This document shows, in pieces, positions 2,809-18,730 of a stretch of 64,000 nt of DNA. Position numbers and translations under genes: made by a program. Origin of the DNA: Candidatus Latescibacterota bacterium (GTDB taxonomy: Bacteria; Latescibacterota; UBA2968; GCA-2709665); the NCBI GenBank assembly GCA_965205485.1, contig OZ242180.1:288001-352000 (forward strand). The letters are read 5' to 3'. The notes under the pieces are model-generated. The model ran no database searches and had not been told where the DNA came from. It saw only the letters and a list, made by a program, of their open reading frames with translations. Each line of letters starts with the position of its first letter. Within the stretch, counting starts at the first letter, position 1.

Positions 2809-3498
2809 ATGGGATCCAGGGGAGTCTTCGTTACCGCCACGGACACCGGCGCGGGCAAAACAGCCGTAACCGCCGGGATCGCGGCGTTGTTGCGCAGACG
2901 CGGCGTCGACGTGGGCGTTTTCAAGCCCGTCTCCTCGGGCGGAACGGCCGACGCGCGATTCCTGGCGAAAGCCGCGGACGTGGCCGATGCGCTCGAACTC
3001 GTCAATCCCGTCCGCCTCGCGGCGCCGCTATCGCCCAACGTTGCGGCCGAACTGGAAGGCCGCAAGGTCCCCCTGGAACCCATCGATGATGCCTACAGCC
3101 GCCTGACACGCCTTCACGATATCGTCCTGGTGGAGGGCGTGGGCGGCCTGCTGGTTCCCATTCGGGACGACTTTCTGGTCGCGGACCTTGCGCGCCGCCT
3201 GGATCTGCCCCTGCTGGTGGTCGCCCGCGCCGCGTTGGGCACGATCAACCACACTCTGCTGACGCTCGAAGCCGCCCACCGGCGCAACCAGCAGGTTATC
3301 GGCGTCGTCTACAACACGACCGGCCCCGGAGATCCGCGAGCCGCCCGCACCAGCCCGGAAGTGATATCCCGACTGTCCGGCGTCCGCTCCCTGGGCATCG
3401 TTCCCCATGATCCCGGCCTGGACGTGGATGCCGGAAACCCGGGATGCCTGCCCGACCTCATCGATCAACACGTGAACCTGGATGGCGTCTTCTTCTGA
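2809..3498 (+). CDS. bioD: Dethiobiotin synthase
   Basis: P-loop TATDTGAGKT, FKPVSSG, VEGVGG, LGTINHTLLT. Confidence 0.93.
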   Translation: MGSRGVFVTATDTGAGKTAVTAGIAALLRRRGVDVGVFKPVSSGGTADARFLAKAADVADALELVNPVRLAAPLSPNVAAELEGRKVPLEPIDDAYSRLTRLHDIVLVEGVGGLLVPIRDDFLVADLARRLDLPLLVVARAALGTINHTLLTLEAAHRRNQQVIGVVYNTTGPGDPRAARTSPEVISRLSGVRSLGIVPHDPGLDVDAGNPGCLPDLIDQHVNLDGVFF

Positions 3499-3533
3499 GT
3501 CCTGTCCAGGTCTTCCGCCTTCAGTTCACCGGC

Positions 3534-4340
3534 CTATCCTTTCTCCTGCTTCGCCACGCCGCGCGTTACCAGGTATTCGACAATCTTCGGGTTGATCAGA
3601 TGCAGCCAGGGCAGAAATCTGAGCTTGAAAGGAATGATCAGTTCCCGCTTCCTTTTCTTCATGGCTTCGATGATGGCCTGGCTGGCGTCGTCCAGAGAAA
3701 TGGACTCCTTGCTGTGCTTGCGGCTGGACGCGCCTAAAGAGCCGCCGTGCTTGCCGAAGGCCGCTTTGCGCAGATTCGTGCCCCGCAGCCAGTGGGGCAG
3801 CACCGTCAGGACGTCCACGCCGGTGTCGAGCAACTCCGTCCGCAGCGACTCGAAGAATCCCTGTACGGCGTGCTTGGATGCCACGTACCCGGTATGCATG
3901 GGGACGCCGATCTTTCCCTGGATGGAAGAGATCGCCACCACCATCCCGTCGCGCGCCTTCAGATGCGGGAGCGCGTAATACACGCAGTGCACGATGCCCA
4001 GGTAGTTCGTTTCCATCAACTTGCGAAAAATGGCCAGGTCTTCCACCTCGTCAAACCGCGCCCACATGCTGATGCCCGCACACGCAACCAGGTAGTCCAC
4101 GCCCCCGAACTCGGCAACCGCCGCGTCGATCCAGGCCTCGCAGTCCCCGGGTTTTCCGACGTCGCCCGTGGCCGTAACCGCGCGTCTGCCCCGCGCTCGA
4201 CACGCTTCCGCGGTATCCTGTACACCCTCGTCCAGGGCGAACAGGGCCAGGTCCGCGCCCTCGTCGGCGAACGCCAGCGCCAGAGTTGCCCCCAGGCCCG
4301 ATGAAGCGCCGGTTATCGCGACGATCTTTCCGTTGAACAT
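3534..4340 (-). CDS. Short-chain dehydrogenase/reductase, DHRS7B/PexRAP-like; candidate acyl/alkyl-DHAP reductase
   Basis: TGASSGLG, SSIQGK, catalytic YVASK; start taken at ATG 4340 (TTG 4352 is an alternative); substrate inferred from context. Confidence 0.85.
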   Translation of the reverse strand: MFNGKIVAITGASSGLGATLALAFADEGADLALFALDEGVQDTAEACRARGRRAVTATGDVGKPGDCEAWIDAAVAEFGGVDYLVACAGISMWARFDEVEDLAIFRKLMETNYLGIVHCVYYALPHLKARDGMVVAISSIQGKIGVPMHTGYVASKHAVQGFFESLRTELLDTGVDVLTVLPHWLRGTNLRKAAFGKHGGSLGASSRKHSKESISLDDASQAIIEAMKKRKRELIIPFKLRFLPWLHLINPKIVEYLVTRGVAKQEKG

Positions 4341-4360
4341 TAGGAAACCCAATCTCCAAA

Positions 4361-4387
4361 CAGCCGTCAGTTATCAGACGTCAGCTA
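4361..4387 (-). repeat. GCTGAYR heptamer array
   Basis: Minus strand reads tagctgacgtctgataactgacggctg; same family as 15978, 18884, 19458, 19672 and 50333. Confidence 0.7.
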
Positions 4388-4442
4388 AGAACAAAAACAA
4401 AACGAAAAAACCCCTTTTCCCAAAATTCCCTGCCTACGGCGT

Positions 4443-4496
4443 GTTCCTTTTGAAGCGACCAAAAGGAACCAAAAAGTCGCCGCTGGGCGCGGGGCC
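4443..4496 (-). repeat. Diverged inverted copy of the 4871-4933 hairpin motif
   Basis: Reverse complement ggccccgcgcccagcggcgactttttggttccttttg...caaaaggaac resembles 4871 ggccccgcgccgagcggcgccgttctttttggcccttttt. Confidence 0.65.
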
Positions 4497-4746
4497 TGCC
4501 TTATGCAGAGCGCGAATTTCCTTACTGGATCCGCATAGCACGTTGCCCTGCCAGCCACAGAAGAAGACCCATTTTCAGTGTGGGACGGAACCACGCGCTC
4601 TGCTCTGGAAGCACTCTGGAATGCAGTCGCGTTAGAAATCTGACTGGCCTGCCGAGTAAGAGCAGCAATCAGCCGCCAACTTAAGGCGAAAGGCGGCACC
4701 AACGCAAAACCGAGCGGTGGACATTCTCTCTCAGTAAAACCACCGA

Positions 4747-4938
4747 CCGCACGGTCGTGGTGAGGGGGGTTTTTCCGTGCAAATCCGTCCCGCACCCGTC
4801 GTATTGGGACACGGGGCGCTCAGGCCACCCAATTTCCATTTTCGCCACTGAGGTGATTCACGGAAAAACCGGCCCCGCGCCGAGCGGCGCCGTTCTTTTT
4901 GGCCCTTTTTCTTTGGCGAGAAAGAAAAAGGGCGTAAA
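4747..4938 (+). repeat. ~190-bp structured interspersed repeat, copy 1
   Basis: 4848-4938 is nearly identical to the reverse complement of 18538-18628; 4747-4797 matches the reverse complement of about 18681-18730. Confidence 0.9.
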
Positions 4939-5007
4939 AAATTAATAATAAATGATTTAGGATATAAATCACGTGGTCTAAAAGCGAGACTATTTAATCC
5001 TGATGCC

Positions 5008-6855
5008 TTAGCCTGTTTCTCCGAAAACGCCGTTCCGTATTCCAAATATATTTTTCGGATCCATCGCGTTTTTCGCCTGGCGCATGACCTGCATGCTGTT
5101 ATCGGTCTGGATCTGAGGCAGGAAGTCCCGCCGAACCTTGCCGACGCCATGGTGGTGCGACAACGACCCCCCGTTGTCAAGTATCACCTGCCGCAACTGG
5201 TGTTCGATCGCGTGAAACGTCCGGCCGGGTTGTTCCAGGCCCTTGCCGTAGATGCCCATGGTAAAATAGATGCAGACGCCCGTATGGTAGGTCTGCGTCA
5301 CCCTGTACGAGAGATAGGGTTTGCCGGGTACGTCGTGCTTGTCTGCCTGGGCGACCAGTTCGCCGGATACCGCATCGCACACCTGGTGAATCCGGTCCCA
5401 GGGCACGGACGTTTCGAAGGTTTCCCCGAGAATTCCGTACTGGTTCAGGAAGTCCCGGATATAGGCGATGCCGAACGTCAGCGAGTACCCCCTCTTGCCG
5501 TTGCTCGCGCCCGCGCTCTTTGCGCCGTATTTTTTCGCCAGGCTGAAAATCGTGCGTTCCTGCTGACCGACCTCGTCGTGCGTTCCCTCCATCACGATGG
5601 TACATGCCGCCATCTTCATGGGATCGAAACCCAGCAGCTTCAGCAGGACGAACTTCTGAATCCGGTCCTTGACGCTTTTAAGAAACGTCGGCGCCGGTTT
5701 CAGCGCCTGGCCGAACCGGAATTCGTTGTTGTTGACCAGGCGGATACTGGCGGGCAGCATACCGGTCTGCCGGAGCGCCTTCAGGTACGCGACGCCCTTC
5801 TCGAATGCCGGAAACACAAGCGCGCCGTACCTGCGAGTCTCCGGGATCGGATGGATCTTGATCACCGCCGTGGTGATGATTCCGAAATTGCCTTCGCTGC
5901 CGAAAAGCAGACCCCTGGGCTGAACGCCCGTGGAATTCCTGGGCGTCACAGCTCGTGTGGCAATCTCCCCGGTGGGCGTCACCAGCGTCGCCTCGAGTAC
6001 GATGTCTTCGATATTGCCGTAACGGTTCTTCTTCATCCCGCTCGCGTTGGTGGAGATCCACCCGCCCATCGTGGAGAGTTCCACGCTGTCGGGATCATGC
6101 CCCGACGTATACCCGCGCTCCCCCAGCGCCCGCTCCATCGCCTTCCCCGAAATGCCCGATTCGACGCAGGCCTGAAGATTGTCCTCGTCAATCCACACCA
6201 CCCGGTCCATGCGACGCATATCCACGGAAACGATCGTGCGCCGCTCATCGGGCGGACACGCCAGCGCCCCGCTCACGTTCGTCCCTCCGCCATAGGGCAC
6301 CAGGCAGACGTCGTGCGCATTCGCCAGGTCGATGATGGCCTTGACATCGGCCTCTTCCTTCGGATAGAACACCATATCGACCAGGCGCGGCAGCGAATCC
6401 CCGTACATCACCCGATACACTTCCTCAACGCTCAGTTGTCCGTGGCTGTGTACCAGCCTCGTTTTGGGATCGAACGAAACCTGTCCCTCGCCAAACTGCT
6501 CGTTCACCGCGTCGCCGAAGGCGTCGTCCACGTTCGGCTCGGGCGCTTCGACGTCCCCGCGTTCCGCGTACGAGTCTTCCCGCCGGATTGTAATCCCCAA
6601 CACGTCCTCCACAAAGTCCAGCAGAAACGGCATCCGATACCCCGAAATCGGGTACCTGCTCCCGGTTACCTTCACCGTCCGATCGCCTACGAACTCGAAG
6701 CGCGTATCCGTGTATCCCCACTTGTGGGGGAACCGTTCCCCCTCGGAGTGATCGAAAAAATCGTCCGTTTCGTTTCCGGATCGCCTCCGGTTCGACAGGT
6801 GCGCAAATATCAGGACAACGGCTACGGCAACCGCTGCTGCTCCCCAGTCAGGCAT
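5008..6855 (-). CDS. Alkyldihydroxyacetonephosphate synthase (AGPS/ADHAPS-like FAD-linked enzyme)
   Basis: PYGGGTNVS, GHDPDSVELSTMGGWISTNASGMKKNRYGNIED, GSEGNFG, FETSVPW, RVTQTY..GVCIYF, GGSLSHHHGVGK; hydrophobic N-terminal anchor. Confidence 0.9.
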   Translation of the reverse strand: MPDWGAAAVAVAVVLIFAHLSNRRRSGNETDDFFDHSEGERFPHKWGYTDTRFEFVGDRTVKVTGSRYPISGYRMPFLLDFVEDVLGITIRREDSYAERGDVEAPEPNVDDAFGDAVNEQFGEGQVSFDPKTRLVHSHGQLSVEEVYRVMYGDSLPRLVDMVFYPKEEADVKAIIDLANAHDVCLVPYGGGTNVSGALACPPDERRTIVSVDMRRMDRVVWIDEDNLQACVESGISGKAMERALGERGYTSGHDPDSVELSTMGGWISTNASGMKKNRYGNIEDIVLEATLVTPTGEIATRAVTPRNSTGVQPRGLLFGSEGNFGIITTAVIKIHPIPETRRYGALVFPAFEKGVAYLKALRQTGMLPASIRLVNNNEFRFGQALKPAPTFLKSVKDRIQKFVLLKLLGFDPMKMAACTIVMEGTHDEVGQQERTIFSLAKKYGAKSAGASNGKRGYSLTFGIAYIRDFLNQYGILGETFETSVPWDRIHQVCDAVSGELVAQADKHDVPGKPYLSYRVTQTYHTGVCIYFTMGIYGKGLEQPGRTFHAIEHQLRQVILDNGGSLSHHHGVGKVRRDFLPQIQTDNSMQVMRQAKNAMDPKNIFGIRNGVFGETG

Positions 6856-6941
6856 AACGGACTCCAGACGACCGCAAGCGGCCGTACCATACGTTTGCGA
6901 CAGCGCAATTCAATGACGGTTGTTCGGTACGTCCCGACGCA

Positions 6942-8882
6942 TCACCGGGAGGGCTCCGGATTCAGCAGGTTGGAAATATGCACCGCCTGAAGCAGATTGG
7001 CGGCTTCCAGCTGGATTCGCAGCGAGCGGCGACGCGGCAGCAACGTGGTTTCGCCCGGCATAGGGGGCAGGATCACCGCCTCGATCACACCCGGATTGAT
7101 ATTCAGATTGCGCGCCGGGCACTTCGGCCATAGCGCATGGCTGCCGCGAAATACGATGGGAATCATCACCACGTCCGCGGGGAGTTTCGCGAACAGCGCG
7201 TGCTGGAGCGGGAACAGCTGTACGTCGAACGAAGCCGTTGTGCCCATCGGATAGATCACCCCGGGGCGGTGTTCCATCTCCTGCAGGATGCGTGGAATCG
7301 TATGGGACGAGATATCCACGCTGTCTCTGGTGATGAAGCCGTCGACGGTTTCGAACATTCTGTCGAATTTGTCAGGGGACATTCCGAAGATGCTGATCTC
7401 GCGGGATCCGATCTTCACCGACGTCGACTTCGCCAGTCCCGTGCGGGCCAGTTGGACCACCGGACGGGAATGGTCCCACCCCATCGCATCCAGAAACACC
7501 GGGTCGTTGAAAACCGAAAACACAACGAAGTGCTCCAGCATGCTCTGGTGGGAAGGCAGGAACAGAATCCTCTGGCCGCCGCGGGAAAGTTCCATTTCCC
7601 GGACCAGTGTCCGGAACATCGGATCAATCGTCACTTCCAGCCGGATGCCGAAGGCATTCATCGTGTCGCGGGACCAATCCAGCCAGACTTCCCACGCGCG
7701 TTCGTGCCTTTGTGACGGCGTGAGGTCCTCTTCAGCGATCCGTTTCCGGCGCCGCCCAACCCGCCAGCAGCGCCTCGCCCACCGCACCATCCTCATTTTG
7801 CGCTGGAGGGACGTCAATTCCTCCGTGACGCCCACATGAGCATAGTCCAGAAATCGACCCGTATGAGAACCTGCCAGCAGCGGAGGGAGCGCCGTTTCAG
7901 TCAATCCGTCCCCGTCTCGAACCGCGGAATTCACCGCATCCACAATCCGGACGCTCAGATCGACCATATCCCGTGTCAGATAACTGTACGGCTGCCCGTA
8001 CCAGTAGTTCTCGGGCCGCAGACGGGCGGGGTCCTCCCGGTGCGCCGCGAGAAACTCCACGAGCATACTCCGGCACAGGTCCACGTCCGCCTTCAGGGAC
8101 GCCATGCGCTCCGCGTCCGAATCCTCCATCTGATACAGCCGTACGTCGGCGTCCGCGACCACCTTCCAGACCGAACTGCCGAACCATCCCAGGTTATTGT
8201 ACGTGTTGTAGCGCGTGGCAAGCAGTTCGCCGGCGGCAATCAGGTGCAAGGTCCGCTGCGCCACGTCTTCCAGGAGTTCACGGAGGGACCCGTTCCATGT
8301 ATCGCCATTCACCTCGCAGGCGTATTCGACCAGCCATCGCGGGTCCTCGTCCGTGGCAACGCTGGGCAGGGCTTCCGCAACGGCCCTGGCGTGGGACAGC
8401 GGCACCCTCGAGATCCTGGCCTGTGCCAACGCTGTCTCGGCCAGGTCGGGCGAGAAATCGTCCCCTTTTGCGAGCGCCTCAACGTATAGCGACTGGTACA
8501 GTTTCAGGAAATCCTGTCCCGTTCCGGCGCCGCTGCCGACGAATTCGTCCCGCAGCCGCAGGTAAATCCGGTTTCCCTCGTGGTAGGCCGGCGTCAGTTC
8601 GACGAAGTGGTCGTGCGCCTCCTTCAGCCTCCGGTCCCTCAGCGCCGGAACACCGACATAAATCGCGTCCACGATTCGCGCGCGCTTTCGCAGCCCTTCC
8701 AGGCCGACCTTATCCGCGCCGCCGGCCGGCCACGTCAGCTCCCCGGCCGTCCAGCCCTCGAAATAACCCTCGGGCTGAACCGCTTCGATCAACTCCGACG
8801 CGGCCTGATCGTACGCCGCACGCAGCCTGTCCGGATCCTGCAACAGCATCCGGTGCACCGGGACCGTCTTGTTTCGATCCAT
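6942..8882 (-). CDS. Atypical glycerolipid acyltransferase: large unknown N-terminal region plus C-terminal PlsC-like domain
   Basis: ILFLPSHQSMLEH (Hx4D-like, Hx4E) and VIYPMGT (FPEGT-like), followed by IPIVFRGS. Confidence 0.65.
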   Translation of the reverse strand: MDRNKTVPVHRMLLQDPDRLRAAYDQAASELIEAVQPEGYFEGWTAGELTWPAGGADKVGLEGLRKRARIVDAIYVGVPALRDRRLKEAHDHFVELTPAYHEGNRIYLRLRDEFVGSGAGTGQDFLKLYQSLYVEALAKGDDFSPDLAETALAQARISRVPLSHARAVAEALPSVATDEDPRWLVEYACEVNGDTWNGSLRELLEDVAQRTLHLIAAGELLATRYNTYNNLGWFGSSVWKVVADADVRLYQMEDSDAERMASLKADVDLCRSMLVEFLAAHREDPARLRPENYWYGQPYSYLTRDMVDLSVRIVDAVNSAVRDGDGLTETALPPLLAGSHTGRFLDYAHVGVTEELTSLQRKMRMVRWARRCWRVGRRRKRIAEEDLTPSQRHERAWEVWLDWSRDTMNAFGIRLEVTIDPMFRTLVREMELSRGGQRILFLPSHQSMLEHFVVFSVFNDPVFLDAMGWDHSRPVVQLARTGLAKSTSVKIGSREISIFGMSPDKFDRMFETVDGFITRDSVDISSHTIPRILQEMEHRPGVIYPMGTTASFDVQLFPLQHALFAKLPADVVMIPIVFRGSHALWPKCPARNLNINPGVIEAVILPPMPGETTLLPRRRSLRIQLEAANLLQAVHISNLLNPEPSR

Positions 8883-9007
8883 TTGTTGTCACTTCGGAAA
8901 AAAGCCGACAGACCGTCAATACATGATTCGGATTCGCCCTGTTCGCATCCCCGTCGCGTGAACATACGAGCGATGACGATTCTGAACCTCGAACCCCTCC
9001 ATCGCCG

Positions 9008-10642
9008 TCAATCGGCCTCGGCGGAAACCACTGAAACCGCCCCGTCCCCCTCTTTCAATACGTGGTGTTTCAATCCCGGAATGTGGATCTCCTGGATATA
9101 TTCCCGCCAGTCGATGCGCGTCACGTCAAAGTTGAATTCCCTCTGATCTTCGGGATTCAGCGCCTCGAACAGCCGGCGGGTATTCTCCGTTTCGAACTCG
9201 CAATCGAGATGGGTGTACCCGCAATAGGTATCGACCAGGGACTCGAGCCGCTCAAGCACGGCTTCCATACCGGACACCCGGCGCCTGTAGCGGGAAACCC
9301 ATCGGGCGGGCAGATAGTCCACGGCCGCCTTCAACAGGCTCAGGGGAAGCTTGTACTTCAGGGCGACCAGACAACGGAACCGCCGCTGGCTGATGAACTT
9401 CCAGGGCCGGACGTCGATGGGCCGCCCGGCTCGGTCCTGCATCGGCGAAGATTTGAAATACCCGTATACCAGTTCGACCATTTCGCTGGCCCGAACCGGG
9501 TTCTGTGAGCCCGAGGCCACGTGGTAGACCTTCATCTCCCCGGACCCGTGTACCTGCGGAAGAACCGCGGTGACGGCGTTGCTCAGGACGTCCACGGGTA
9601 TGATATCCAGCACAATCCCGGGATCGATCGGGAAATTTGAAAGCCGGCCCTTGCCGTAGTGGACGATCAGCGGATCGGCGACTTTCAGGTCCTCCACCCA
9701 GCCGGGTTCCGGGTCCTCCAGGCTGCTCTCCACGATCGCCGGCCGGACGATGACCGTCGGAAGGTCTCCCCGCAGTTTCACGACCAACTGTTCGCCCATC
9801 GCCTTGGTGAGGGTGTAGCTGTCGTTCCAGCCGTGACGCCTCGCACGCCGCATCCCTTCGTCCACCATCTGCTTCCGGATCCATCGCTGGCGAAGGGCTT
9901 CTACCTGGTGTGCCTTCCGGTAGTCGGTCACGCGTTTTCCGCGGTCCTGCCGCCGGAGCTGCTTCAGGAACGCCGCCTCGAGGCCGGGTTCCCTGGATGC
10001 CTCCTCGACTTCCCGTGTAAAGGCCCGGATAGCGTCAATCTCGTCCTGCAGGTCGAACCCGGCGGCCCTTCCGTTGATAAGGTCCGAAACGCTCTTGTTT
10101 TGGGGAAACGGCACTTCGGGTATCCGGCCGGTGCGCTTTCCGCTCACGTACGCGGTTGATACATGAACGAGCGCAGCTTTCCGGCAGGCTTTCGCGAAGG
10201 CGACGACGCGGGCGGCGCCCATCGCATTCTGTTCGAGGGCGCTGTCGATGGGCTCGTCGAAGACCACGGTCCCGGCGTAATTGACGACAAAATCGACGTC
10301 TTCGGCGAGTCGCTCGCGTTGTTCGGTGGAAATCCCCAGTCCGTCTTCGGTCAGATCGCCGGCCACTGCCACGACCTTCTCGGACATCACCGATGGAAAT
10401 GCCGCGCCCCACTTCGCTCGCAACCTTTCGAACGCGCGGGACTGAAGGATTTCGGACTCCAGGCGTTCCGCATCCGAGACGATCTGGCCGTTGGAACGCG
10501 ACCGGGGACGGATCAGGAGATAGATCCGCGCCACCTCGGGCGCGGAAAACAGGACCTTCTCCACGAACCCCTTCGCCAGGAACCCCGTCGCGCCGGTTAC
10601 AAAAAGCGTCTTGCCGCTCAGAAACTCTGCAATGGACTGCAT
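9008..10642 (-). CDS. Fatty acyl-CoA reductase (alcohol-forming FAR, male-sterility type)
   Basis: VTGATGFLAK, HVSTAYV, YTLTKAMGE, RPAIVES..PGW, DIIPVD, C-terminal FNFDVTRIDW..HIPGLKHHVLKE. Confidence 0.9.
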   Translation of the reverse strand: MQSIAEFLSGKTLFVTGATGFLAKGFVEKVLFSAPEVARIYLLIRPRSRSNGQIVSDAERLESEILQSRAFERLRAKWGAAFPSVMSEKVVAVAGDLTEDGLGISTEQRERLAEDVDFVVNYAGTVVFDEPIDSALEQNAMGAARVVAFAKACRKAALVHVSTAYVSGKRTGRIPEVPFPQNKSVSDLINGRAAGFDLQDEIDAIRAFTREVEEASREPGLEAAFLKQLRRQDRGKRVTDYRKAHQVEALRQRWIRKQMVDEGMRRARRHGWNDSYTLTKAMGEQLVVKLRGDLPTVIVRPAIVESSLEDPEPGWVEDLKVADPLIVHYGKGRLSNFPIDPGIVLDIIPVDVLSNAVTAVLPQVHGSGEMKVYHVASGSQNPVRASEMVELVYGYFKSSPMQDRAGRPIDVRPWKFISQRRFRCLVALKYKLPLSLLKAAVDYLPARWVSRYRRRVSGMEAVLERLESLVDTYCGYTHLDCEFETENTRRLFEALNPEDQREFNFDVTRIDWREYIQEIHIPGLKHHVLKEGDGAVSVVSAEAD

Positions 10643-10947
10643 AACTTCCCGAATTGGACAAAAAACCCGTTTCCCCTACCTCATTAGTCAGCCGCAACAA
10701 TCCGGAAGAATCTCCGTCGTTGTTCTTCCGTCATCGCGCCGCGAGGTCGAGTGAACGGGACGTCATAAAATCGCTGAATCGCAATAACCAATGGCAACCG
10801 TAAACCATACCACCGGTGTTCGTTTACCAGATAAGGAAGGAAAGCCAAGATCCGCTTGGAGTCAAGGGAAATCTGGTTACGGACACTTTTGATTTGTCCT
10901 TTGGATTCTTTCCTCGTATATTTGGTATAAATGAGGAAGTGATGTCT

Positions 10948-11250
10948 ATGAAATGGCTAAGAGAAAATGCAGCAGCAATTATGGCTATAATGGCTATTCT
11001 GACTCCTTTGCTGCTTTATGCTTCAAGCATAGATGGACGACTTGATAGCATAGAAAAGGATGTTTTGGTCATAAAGAAGGATCTTTCAGCGTTGAAGGGA
11101 GATCTTTCGGCGTTGAGGGGAGATTTCTCAGTGTTGAAGGGAGATCTTTCAGCGTTGAAAGGAGATTTTTCGGCGTTAAGAAAGGATCTTTCAGCCATTA
11201 AGCGTCATATAGGAGTTTCGTCGGCTTCAATTGCAACCAGCGAAAATTAG
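10948..11250 (+). CDS. Small membrane-anchored coiled-coil protein with heptad repeats
   Basis: GAGGA RBS at about 10933 (starts at 10939 or 10942 also possible); N-terminal hydrophobic helix, then six GDLSALK-type heptads; AT-rich. Confidence 0.7.
   Translation: MKWLRENAAAIMAIMAILTPLLLYASSIDGRLDSIEKDVLVIKKDLSALKGDLSALRGDFSVLKGDLSALKGDFSALRKDLSAIKRHIGVSSASIATSEN
11077..11202 (+). repeat. 6 x 21-bp in-frame tandem repeat
   Basis: Units of the form ggagatctttcagcgttgaag. Confidence 0.9.
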
Positions 11251-11304
11251 ACTCAATCAAACCCACTAAATGGAAACTTCATCCAGTGGGTTTTAATCAT
11301 TCTG

Positions 11305-18431: not shown

Positions 18432-18537
18432 GACGGAAAATCGCGGGCGAATTTACAAAAAATGCCGAGACCCCAGTGACGGATCGCGCACCGGTGCCAC
18501 GACTTCATTTTACTCCCATCATATTGTTATTTATTTC

Positions 18538-18730
18538 TTTACGCCCTTTTTCTTTCTCGCCAAAGAAAAAGGGCCAAAAAGAACGGCGCCGCTCGGCGCG
18601 GAGCCGGTTTTTCCGTGAATCACCTCAGAGGTAAGAAAGAAATGAGTGCCCTACATGCCCCTGAAGCATATCAATATTAAGGTGCTGGACGGATTAACAC
18701 GGAAAAACCCCCCACGCCACAACCGAGCGG
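18538..18730 (-). repeat. ~190-bp structured interspersed repeat, copy 2
   Basis: Inverted copy of 4747-4938 with a diverged central segment. Confidence 0.9.

Follow-up and report, generated by a model that had tools for sequence, protein, structure and literature searches.

Sponges and sediments are rich in 1-O-alkylglycerol lipids, and little is known of the bacteria that make them. In mammals, the peroxisomal ether-lipid route relies on FAR1, GNPAT, AGPS and an acyl/alkyl-DHAP reductase (PexRAP/DHRS7B). Bacterial phospholipid synthesis is entered almost universally through GpsA, which normally supplies G3P de novo, combined with PlsX/PlsY or with PlsB.

An operon for an alkyl-DHAP route has already been described in Myxococcus xanthus, where it comprises MXAN_1676 (AGPS), MXAN_1675 (a fusion of FAR1-like and GNPAT-like regions) and MXAN_1674 (NAD-dependent epimerase/dehydratase family) (PMC9131029, PMC13012113). 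Agps homologues have also been reported from 67 of 92 Latescibacterota MAGs (PMC11868695). Furthermore, a myxobacterial origin has been argued for FAR/GNPAT and PEDS1, with AGPS found phylogenetically uninformative (PMC13012113). The Latescibacterota locus, as another bacterial AGPS system of different construction, is relevant to this debate about the origin of the eukaryotic pathway.

Here we present the analysis of a four-gene operon from a window of 64,000 nucleotides of a Candidatus Latescibacterota genome, assembled as one contig and 97.3% complete. We consider it likely that this locus encodes, in its Latescibacterota form, the AGPS (alkyl-DHAP) route to 1-O-alkyl glycerolipids, with an acyltransferase probably doubling as the sn-1 enzyme of ester lipids. 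This reading draws on family assignments, a predicted fold, synteny and genome co-occurrence, from which all substrates, cofactors and products are deduced. The operon would provide a concrete gene set for ether-lipid production in one widespread uncultured phylum and, if the reading is true, a rare instance of an acyl-DHAP route in a bacterium.

The first-pass annotation of this DNA had proposed a four-step 1-O-alkylglycerol pathway, with no known description as a single bacterial cluster. The pathway itself is supported by the identities of FAR and AGPS, by the conservation of the genes as a unit and by an SDR that tracks AGPS across genomes, but its novelty is not, the M. xanthus AGPS operon being already published (PMC9131029, PMC13012113). 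The bacterial AGPS operon as such is thus known, and what is new here is the splitting of FAR and acyltransferase into two genes, the orphan acyltransferase family and the different reductase. A literature search, with supplementary material (the GNPAT datasets of PMC13012113 and a bioRxiv sponge preprint) outside its scope, turned up no account of the acyltransferase family, none of the four-gene Latescibacterota operon and none of a lack of PlsX, PlsY, PlsB and GpsA.

Gene layout and described counterparts

The four genes lie on the minus strand, starting with FAR (544 aa, 9008-10642) and followed by the orphan acyltransferase (646 aa, 6942-8882), the AGPS orthologue (615 aa, 5008-6855) and a classical SDR (272 aa, 3534-4352), the candidate alkyl/acyl-DHAP reductase. 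The limits and common direction previously given for these genes match the ORF list exactly, and the translations contain the quoted motif strings: the 615-aa protein has SLSHHHGVGK, among others, and the 272-aa protein SSIQGK and YVASKHA. The FAR gene is separate from that of the acyltransferase, at a distance of 125 bp. Scans of positions 3300-11300 for promoters, terminators and Rfam families gave no signal above chance, and the minus strand ahead of FAR yielded no sigma-70-like promoter.

The first gene carries both domains of eukaryote-type FARs, PF07993 (NAD_binding_4, 3.4e-64) and PF03015 ("Sterile", 1.6e-16), together with the glycine-rich GATGFL motif at residue 17 and the YxxxK motif (YTLTK) at residue 276, and it matches the solved FAR 7eoz at E 2.7e-93. 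These features bear out the earlier naming of an alcohol-forming FAR, the alcohol product being predicted. By tblastn, it is the sole FAR-like gene of the genome. It shares 44-50% identity with the FAR domains of ElbD-like proteins (1430-1460 aa), the myxobacterial architecture that joins FAR, AMP-binding, ACP and acyltransferase domains. Unlike ElbD and the elb cluster, the Latescibacterota locus has no adenylation domain or carrier protein, distributes its functions over separate genes and includes AGPS.

The third gene encodes a real AGPS orthologue, as its signatures had suggested in the first-pass annotation. Its two Pfam domains, PF01565 (2.5e-38, residues 160-299) and PF02913 (7.8e-36, residues 337-604), are those of the flavin-dependent VAO/PCMH superfamily, which also includes D-lactate and glycolate oxidases. 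This membership raises the alternative that the protein catalyses another flavin reaction, for instance 2-hydroxy acid oxidation, and that the cluster does not serve ether-lipid synthesis. We give this alternative hardly any credence. The protein aligns almost over its full length (residues 45-608) with guinea-pig AGPS 4bby (E 1e-150, 506 bits) and with Dictyostelium AGPS 2uuu (E 8.4e-82), far ahead of its best non-AGPS solved match, the D-LDH 8jdc (E 4.1e-25, 91 bits), so that the grouping with D-lactate/glycolate oxidases, named earlier as an outcome that would speak against the pathway, was not seen. It also reaches only 165 bits against the GlcD equivalog model, far under the cut-off of 568, and it is found in the constant company of FAR, the acyltransferase and the reductase. 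R372, T520, Y530 and H567-569 align with R419, T568, Y578 and H615-617 of 4bby, among which we take R419, Y578 and H615-617 to be the active-site arginine, tyrosine and His-His-His loop, respectively. The N-terminus displays a hydrophobic segment followed by RRR. This segment recurs in 36 of 39 AGPS orthologues and probably anchors the enzyme in the membrane.

The fourth gene belongs to PF00106 (1.1e-43), scores 286 bits against NF004825 (cut-off 215) and contains TGASSGLG at residue 14, SSIQGK at 142 and YVASK at 156, with the Ser-Tyr-Lys set present. Its nearest solved relatives are acetoin reductase (1.3e-24), clavulanic acid dehydrogenase and 11-beta-HSD1 (4.1e-22), and an Atlas search returned generic bacterial SDR clusters only. 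Its ORF starts with TTG, an ATG lying 4 codons further in.

Like the published M. xanthus operon, the locus clusters AGPS, FAR, an sn-1-type acyltransferase and an NAD(P)-dependent reductase, consistent with a eukaryote-like alkyl-DHAP route. Unlike that operon as published, it has FAR and acyltransferase as separate genes, the order FAR-acyltransferase-AGPS-SDR and, as reductase, a classical SDR (PF00106) rather than an epimerase/dehydratase. The acyltransferase, moreover, showed no sequence link to GNPAT or PF01553 in our searches. The chemistry proposed comprises the four steps of the mammalian peroxisomal route, with which the locus also shares a near-full-length AGPS alignment and both FAR domains. 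It differs from this route by the lack of a peroxisome, by the hydrophobic N-terminal segment of AGPS and by an acyltransferase that is not detectably GNPAT by sequence.

The orphan acyltransferase

The 646-aa protein matches no Pfam or NCBIfam family, even at E 10 and E 1, and its profile found nothing under E 0.16 among PDB sequences. Searched against 1.84 billion representative proteins, the family profile recovers 65, all within the family, whose members are labelled "hypothetical" in databases. Nevertheless, 15 of 33 relatives match PF01553 at E <= 1 (best 8.9e-8), and the AlphaFold2 model (pLDDT 89.2, pTM 0.91) predicts a helical N-terminal domain (~1-356) followed by a PlsC-fold C-terminal domain (~357-646). 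The top Foldseek match of the model is the T. maritima PlsC structure 5kym_A (E 1.5e-4). Residues 357-646 superpose on this structure with Z 16.4 and an rmsd of 3.4 Å over 231/241 residues (VIA-align), and on plant and human GPATs with Z 8.2-9.0 (8.8 for human GPAT1, 8e4y). Aligned by hhalign with ElbD-like acyltransferase domains, the protein gives a weak match (probability 55%, E 1.2e-4) that keeps motifs I, III and IV in register. The earlier label of a PlsC-like acyltransferase is hence upheld by the predicted fold, by this weak profile-profile match and by the relatives assigned to PF01553, but not by a direct family match.

As in the PlsC/GPAT superfamily (PF01553), an HX4(D/E) motif is conserved, and it aligns with the NHxxxxD motif of ElbD-like acyltransferase domains. 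H445 is found in 33/33 relatives; at position 450, 25 of them have D and 8 have E. The window protein itself has E450 in place of the D of HX4D (motif I). Motif III, (F/Y)xEGTR, which serves in acceptor binding in PlsC and GPAT enzymes, departs from the canonical form. The window protein reads YPMGTTA, and the family YP(M/A)(G/A)TT, against FPEGTRS in ElbD-type domains; T548 is kept in 33/33 relatives, and the positions of the canonical E and R are occupied by M/A and T. Because motif I has E and motif III is without E and R, the acceptor of the enzyme is uncertain. Unlike PlsC/GPAT enzymes, the protein also carries the extra helical N-terminal domain of ~350 aa. Folded alone (pLDDT 86.5) and compared with 48,161 chains, this domain retrieved generic helical bundles only, the best Z of 10.0 being under the chance level for helical models and thus structurally uninformative. 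The orphan acyltransferase may represent a new family of first-step glycerolipid acyltransferases.

Distribution across Latescibacterota

Synteny was compared over 79 related loci, each holding the acyltransferase. FAR, acyltransferase, AGPS and SDR occur in this order and on the same strand in 37 of them, so that the arrangement is not due to chance, and the SDR lies downstream of AGPS in 37/37 of these four-gene loci. FAR is directly upstream of the acyltransferase in 50/79 loci and AGPS downstream of it in 40/79, the acyltransferase standing between both in 40/79, with median gaps of ~22 bp (FAR-acyltransferase) and ~91 bp (acyltransferase-AGPS). Genes flanking the operon are kept in at most 20/79 loci. 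The synteny search advised in the first-pass annotation, for which a lack of co-occurrence would have weighed against the pathway, thus delineates the four genes as a conserved unit.

This association extends to the scale of the phylum. Among 168 Latescibacterota genomes, which are related rather than independent and include many incomplete MAGs, AGPS was detected in 124, the acyltransferase in 132 and both in 123, that is in 123 of the 133 genomes with either. An SDR orthologue was present in 120/124 AGPS-positive genomes and in 0/44 AGPS-negative ones. The acyltransferase occurs without AGPS in nine genomes (G013, G042, G044, G066, G079, G154, G155, G157 and G158), all of them also without SDR orthologue and GpsA, G013 belonging to family f8 and the 8 others to families f1-f4. 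In these nine genomes the acyltransferase would therefore operate independently of the SDR, and may use G3P or another reductase.

Alternatively, FAR and the acyltransferase could make up a module of their own for fatty alcohols or wax esters (neutral lipids), placed beside an independent AGPS-SDR pair and not feeding it. FAR-acyltransferase pairs lack AGPS within ~8 kb at six loci and, in AGPS-less genomes, the pair persists and is followed by HAD, Zn-ADH and Lar_N genes. Moreover, where the acyltransferase stands alone, AGPS (64-66% identity) was located elsewhere in 5/5 genomes checked, directly adjoined by the SDR (52-64%), as expected from two separable pairs. A FAR homologue is also present in the same 5/5 genomes, and the neighbours of lone acyltransferases (32 ORFs over 9 loci) share no lipid context, with hybrid kinases, Gfo/Idh/MocA and others. 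We nonetheless regard a separate module as highly improbable, since AGPS requires a fatty alcohol and the operon FAR is the only FAR-like gene of the genome, since the acyltransferase and AGPS co-occur in nearly all genomes with either, and since no wax-synthase-type feature was noticed in the acyltransferase. In addition, the distribution of this enzyme, complementary to that of PlsY and GpsA, suggests a part in phospholipid synthesis.

This complementarity appears when the genomes are split by family. Families f1-f4 constitute one class of 132 genomes, including that of the window, and the other families account for 36 genomes. PlsY and GpsA were each found in 0/132 genomes of the class versus 29/36 in the other families; conversely, the acyltransferase is encoded in 130/132 and 2/36, respectively. 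PlsB was detected in 0/168 genomes of the phylum and in the E. coli positive control. In contrast to the M. xanthus system, searches of the window genome found no ElbD-like gene and no PlsX, PlsY, PlsB or GpsA; they retrieved a single PF01553 gene, a 286-aa PlsC-sized frame, and a glycerol kinase (674 bits, cut-off 590), so that G3P is obtainable from glycerol without GpsA. The acyltransferase thus seems to serve the class in a housekeeping capacity, not one restricted to ether lipids. As PlsX, PlsY, PlsB and GpsA were not found, the cell probably relies on this enzyme alone for the sn-1 acylation of ordinary ester lipids too, with G3P as acceptor besides or instead of DHAP. If this is true, the orphan acyltransferase closes what looks like a gap in the lipid metabolism of the entire class. 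Both the apparent housekeeping role and the missing enzymes had been overlooked in the initial reading.

Pushed further, the same data might mean that the acyltransferase is nothing but the housekeeping G3P acyltransferase, a substitute for PlsB or PlsY that sits in the operon because of its part in lipid synthesis generally, with acyl-DHAP supplied to AGPS by another enzyme. Its presence in nearly all genomes of a class without PlsY and GpsA, including 8 without AGPS or SDR, fits such an exclusive role, as do a top structural match of LPA/G3P-type and the glycerol kinase. However, the sole other PF01553 gene is the PlsC-sized frame, so no other candidate for acyl-DHAP formation is visible, and GpsA was detected in 0/132 genomes of the class. 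Furthermore, the position between FAR and AGPS is reminiscent of the fusions of FAR with GNPAT reported from myxobacteria and eukaryotes (PMC13012113). We accordingly judge an exclusively housekeeping function unlikely, and favour an acyltransferase shared by the ether-lipid and ester-lipid routes.

Proposed route and AGPS-SDR spacing

In the favoured alkyl-DHAP route, FAR would produce a fatty alcohol by reducing an activated fatty acid, while the 646-aa acyltransferase, through its PlsC-fold domain with HX4(D/E), would acylate DHAP to 1-acyl-DHAP, a substrate suggested by gene context and by the absence of another candidate enzyme. AGPS would then swap the acyl group for the fatty alcohol to give 1-alkyl-DHAP, whose keto group would be reduced by the SDR to 1-alkyl-glycerol-3-phosphate. 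The sn-2 position would finally be acylated by the single canonical PlsC-type enzyme of the genome, encoded elsewhere. PEDS1/CarF (PF10520) had no match in the window genome, which shows little as the control matched in 0/14 genomes; because of this search, which lacked a positive control, alkyl rather than vinyl ethers are tentatively expected.

A broader scenario, which we put forward as a speculative possibility less probable than not, is that the class formed by families f1-f4 gave up GpsA along with PlsX/PlsY or PlsB. Its glycerolipids would then be made as in the eukaryotic peroxisome, through direct DHAP acylation by the orphan acyltransferase, with AGPS converting much of the product to alkyl-DHAP and the dedicated SDR reducing both acyl- and alkyl-DHAP, and ether lipids would be bulk constituents of the membrane, not a by-product.

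Within the window, a dispersed repeat of 655 bp (4353-5007, no strand assigned) is inserted between AGPS and the SDR, whereas these genes are spaced by 61-168 bp in close relatives. Since this repeat intervenes, co-transcription of the SDR with AGPS is less sure in the window genome. We weighed a 136-aa ORF (4795-4385) as a possible fifth gene and discarded it as probably not a gene. It sits inside the repeat, matches no Pfam or NCBIfam family and, beyond a short 36-aa fragment, is present in only 1/79 loci (L003, 76%). The repeat, which had gone unremarked in the first-pass annotation, has more than 50 partial copies elsewhere in the genome, at 70-94% identity.

Operon architecture and published counterparts

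Four genes on the minus strand of the window encode, in order, a fatty acyl-CoA reductase (FAR; 10642-9008, 544 aa), an unnamed protein treated here as an acyltransferase (AT; 8882-6942, 646 aa), an FAD enzyme (6855-5008, 615 aa) and a short-chain dehydrogenase/reductase (SDR; 4352-3534, 272 aa), separated by gaps of 125 bp (FAR/AT), 86 bp (AT/FAD enzyme) and 655 bp (FAD enzyme/SDR). The ORF listing agrees exactly with the limits and common direction of the first-pass annotation, which had proposed a complete eukaryote-type alkyl-DHAP pathway at this place, and the motif strings quoted there were found in the translated proteins. Convergent bioA-like (1328-2695) and bioD-like (2809-3498) genes lie downstream and a divergent small ORF (10816-11250) upstream; these flanking genes are kept in at most 20 of the 79 related loci, so the four genes form the conserved unit. 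In close relatives the third gap is only 61-168 bp, against 655 bp in the window, where a dispersed repeat of ~600 bp in two modules is inserted at 4353-5007. This repeat is also present at about 18518-18730 and has more than 50 partial copies (70-94% identity) spread across the 5.1-Mb genome.

The same annotation had presented the locus as an undescribed kind of single bacterial cluster. This novelty claim falls because a Myxococcus xanthus operon and Latescibacterota Agps homologues are already in the literature. PMC9131029 and PMC13012113 describe the three-gene operon MXAN_1676 (alkyl-DHAP synthase, AGPS), MXAN_1675 (a FAR1-like and GNPAT-like fusion) and MXAN_1674 (NAD-dependent epimerase/dehydratase family), and attribute to MXAN_1676, with genetic support, a minor part in ether-lipid formation. 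PMC11868695 reports Agps homologues in 67 of 92 Black Sea Latescibacterota MAGs, and bioRxiv 10.64898/2026.06.23.733905 reports them in sponge Latescibacterota MAGs. Judged against these sources, the operon is a differently built version of an already known bacterial ether-lipid operon type: FAR1-like and GNPAT-like parts are fused in M. xanthus and accompanied by an epimerase/dehydratase-family gene, whereas FAR and AT are split in the window and accompanied by a classical SDR. Our literature search, from which the supplements of PMC13012113 and of the bioRxiv preprint were left out, found no published account of the orphan acyltransferase family or of an operon of four separate genes that includes a classical SDR; literature searching also returned none of a class-wide absence of PlsY, PlsB and GpsA, with PlsX missing too. 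Overall, the gene observation holds and the pathway interpretation holds in part; the part of real interest is the acyltransferase, taken with the standard enzymes for entry into phospholipid synthesis that were not found.

Identity of the AGPS, FAR and SDR

Judged by its sequence matches, the FAD enzyme is assigned as a true AGPS. A search against all PDB sequences matched guinea-pig AGPS (4bby, residues 45-608) at E 1e-150 and Dictyostelium AGPS (2uuu) at E 8.4e-82, with D-lactate dehydrogenase as the next family at just 4e-25, and the NCBIfam glycolate-oxidase model scored 165 bits, far under its cut-off of 568. By these scores the enzyme does not group with D-lactate/glycolate oxidases, and the first-pass reading of it as an AGPS stands. 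Residues R372, T520, Y530 and H567-569 align with R419, T568, Y578 and H615-617 of 4bby, which we take to be active-site or disease-mutation positions. Where mammalian AGPS carries a targeting leader, the N-terminus of the window protein (6780-6855) has a hydrophobic stretch followed by RRR; in 36 of 39 orthologues a hydrophobic segment precedes the conserved core by no more than 50 residues, the exceptions being those of loci L038, L073 and L074.

The FAR combines PF07993 with the 'Sterile' domain PF03015, matches the solved FAR 7eoz at 2.7e-93 and is the sole FAR-like gene of its genome. Its nearest longer relatives (44-50% identity) belong to two fusion types: ElbD-like proteins of 1430-1460 aa that combine FAR, AMP-binding, ACP and acyltransferase domains, none of which was found in the window's genome, and FAR/AMP-binding/HAD fusions. 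The latter, proteins P0099-P0138 of ~1190-1246 aa, join FAR, AMP-binding and HAD hydrolase (PF12710/PF00702) domains, unlike the ElbD architecture with its ACP and acyltransferase. The SDR is classical (PF00106, TGASSGLG, S-Y-K set), and its closest solved relatives are generic: acetoin reductase, clavulanic acid dehydrogenase and 11-beta-HSD1 (E 1e-24 to 4e-22). PEDS1/CarF had no match in the window's genome, in a search whose control also gave no match, and we therefore cautiously expect alkyl rather than vinyl ethers.

An orphan acyltransferase with a predicted PlsC fold

The 646-aa protein has zero matches in Pfam and NCBIfam, and a profile of 33 relatives found nothing below E 0.16 among PDB sequences. 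A word-indexed search returned 87 relatives, almost all unnamed or 'hypothetical' and from Latescibacterota-type MAGs, while profile searching of 1.84 billion representative proteins gave 65 matches at E <= 0.001 (7 full length, the others fragments) and none at this threshold outside the family itself. PF01553 was touched by 15 of the 33 relatives at E <= 1, with a best value of 8.9e-8.

The AlphaFold2 model (pLDDT 89.2, pTM 0.91) has Thermotoga maritima PlsC as its top Foldseek match (E 1.5e-4). Residues 357-646 align with PlsC 5kym_A over 231 of 241 residues (Z 16.4, rmsd 3.4 A), followed by plant, algal and human GPATs (Z 8.2-9.0), and the model thus gives this orphan family the fold of PlsC. 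H445 occurs in all 33 relatives; at position 450, 25 carry D and 8 carry E, the latter also being the residue of the window protein. In an hhalign comparison with ElbD-like proteins (probability 55%, E 1.2e-4), motifs I, III and IV line up. Motif III reads YP(M/A)(G/A)TT instead of FPEGTRS, making the predicted acceptor site atypical. Folded alone, residues 1-356 reached pLDDT 86.5, and their structural matches were generic helical bundles only (best Z 10.0), none of them informative.

Two recurrent gene pairs and the missing entry enzymes

Surveying one genome per species, we found 79 loci holding the acyltransferase, mostly in Latescibacterota MAGs, some labelled Gemmatimonadota, Eisenbacteria or Handelsmanbacteria. 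FAR-AT-AGPS-SDR occurs with identical order and strand in 37 of the 79; two others have FAR and AGPS on contigs leaving no space for the SDR, and in one (L038) both are present but the SDR is a different one. FAR stands without AGPS or SDR inside the flank in six loci and before too short a downstream contig in four, and the acyltransferase is alone in 29, 4 of them short-flanked. In all five 'AT alone' genomes examined, an AGPS orthologue (64-66% identity) is encoded elsewhere, immediately adjoined by an SDR orthologue (52-64%); the system therefore consists of two recurrent pairs, FAR-AT and AGPS-SDR, which are fused into a single operon in families f1 and f2, including the window's genome. 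FAR homologues were present in all five, two inside ElbD-sized frames and three free-standing.

The phylum scan covered 168 genomes, 132 in families f1-f4 (window's genome included) and 36 in f5-f14; as these genomes are related, and many also incomplete, the counts are not independent. AGPS (E <= 1e-100) was found in 124 genomes (123/132 in f1-f4, 1/36 in f5-f14), the acyltransferase (E <= 1e-50) in 132 (130/132 and 2/36) and the SDR orthologue (E <= 1e-50) in 120 (119/132 and 1/36). Window's genome excluded, AGPS reached 21/21 in f1, 29/31 in f2, 1/3 in f3 and 71/76 in f4. Conversely, PlsY (PF02660) and GpsA (PF07479) were each detected in 29/168 genomes, 0/132 in f1-f4 and 29/36 in f5-f14, and PlsB (TIGR03703) in 0/168 (0/132 and 0/36); as positive controls, PlsY was recovered in 8/14 named genomes, GpsA in 10/14 and PlsB in E. 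coli. Neither PlsX nor PlsY was found in the window's genome, a single 5.13-Mb contig that is 97.3% complete and whose one PF01553 gene, a frame of 286 aa, has the size of a PlsC.

The SDR is bound to AGPS by co-occurrence (120/124 AGPS-positive vs 0/44 AGPS-negative genomes), a pattern compatible with an alkyl-DHAP reductase. Two of the four AGPS-positive genomes without it carry a divergent AGPS, a clade 46-47% identical to the window enzyme and present in three genomes (G043, G099, G156). At L038 (7902-10483), the G043 locus, a classical SDR of 269 aa overlaps the end of this AGPS and is only 26% identical to that of the window.

The acyltransferase follows class membership, not AGPS (the two together in 123 genomes, acyltransferase only in 9, AGPS only in one that is 78% complete), and its distribution is complementary to that of PlsY and GpsA, which fits a housekeeping sn-1 acyltransferase. 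In the simplest model it would acylate DHAP, perhaps also G3P, since the substrate of AGPS is acyl-DHAP and we see no further candidate acyltransferase. Three observations speak against DHAP as the only route. Each of the nine genomes that have the acyltransferase and no AGPS also misses the SDR orthologue and GpsA. A glycerol kinase above the NCBIfam cut-off is encoded outside the window (G000:C1:1498049-1499518, the window's own genome), so glycerol could supply G3P where GpsA was not found. Finally, in AGPS-less relatives FAR-AT is followed by HAD, uncharacterised, Zn-ADH and Lar_N proteins.

Downstream of FAR-AT, these loci (L039 9994-16171, L078 10007-15688, L059 10544-15592 and L033 10121-15413) have other genes than the window: a HAD hydrolase (PF12710) not seen in L059, a 428-747-aa protein without Pfam match, a Zn-dependent alcohol dehydrogenase in L059 and L078, and, in L039, L059 and L078, a Lar_N (PF09861) protein of 515 aa. 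FAR-AT with HAD, Zn-ADH and Lar_N may represent a different, alternative elb-like ether-lipid module.
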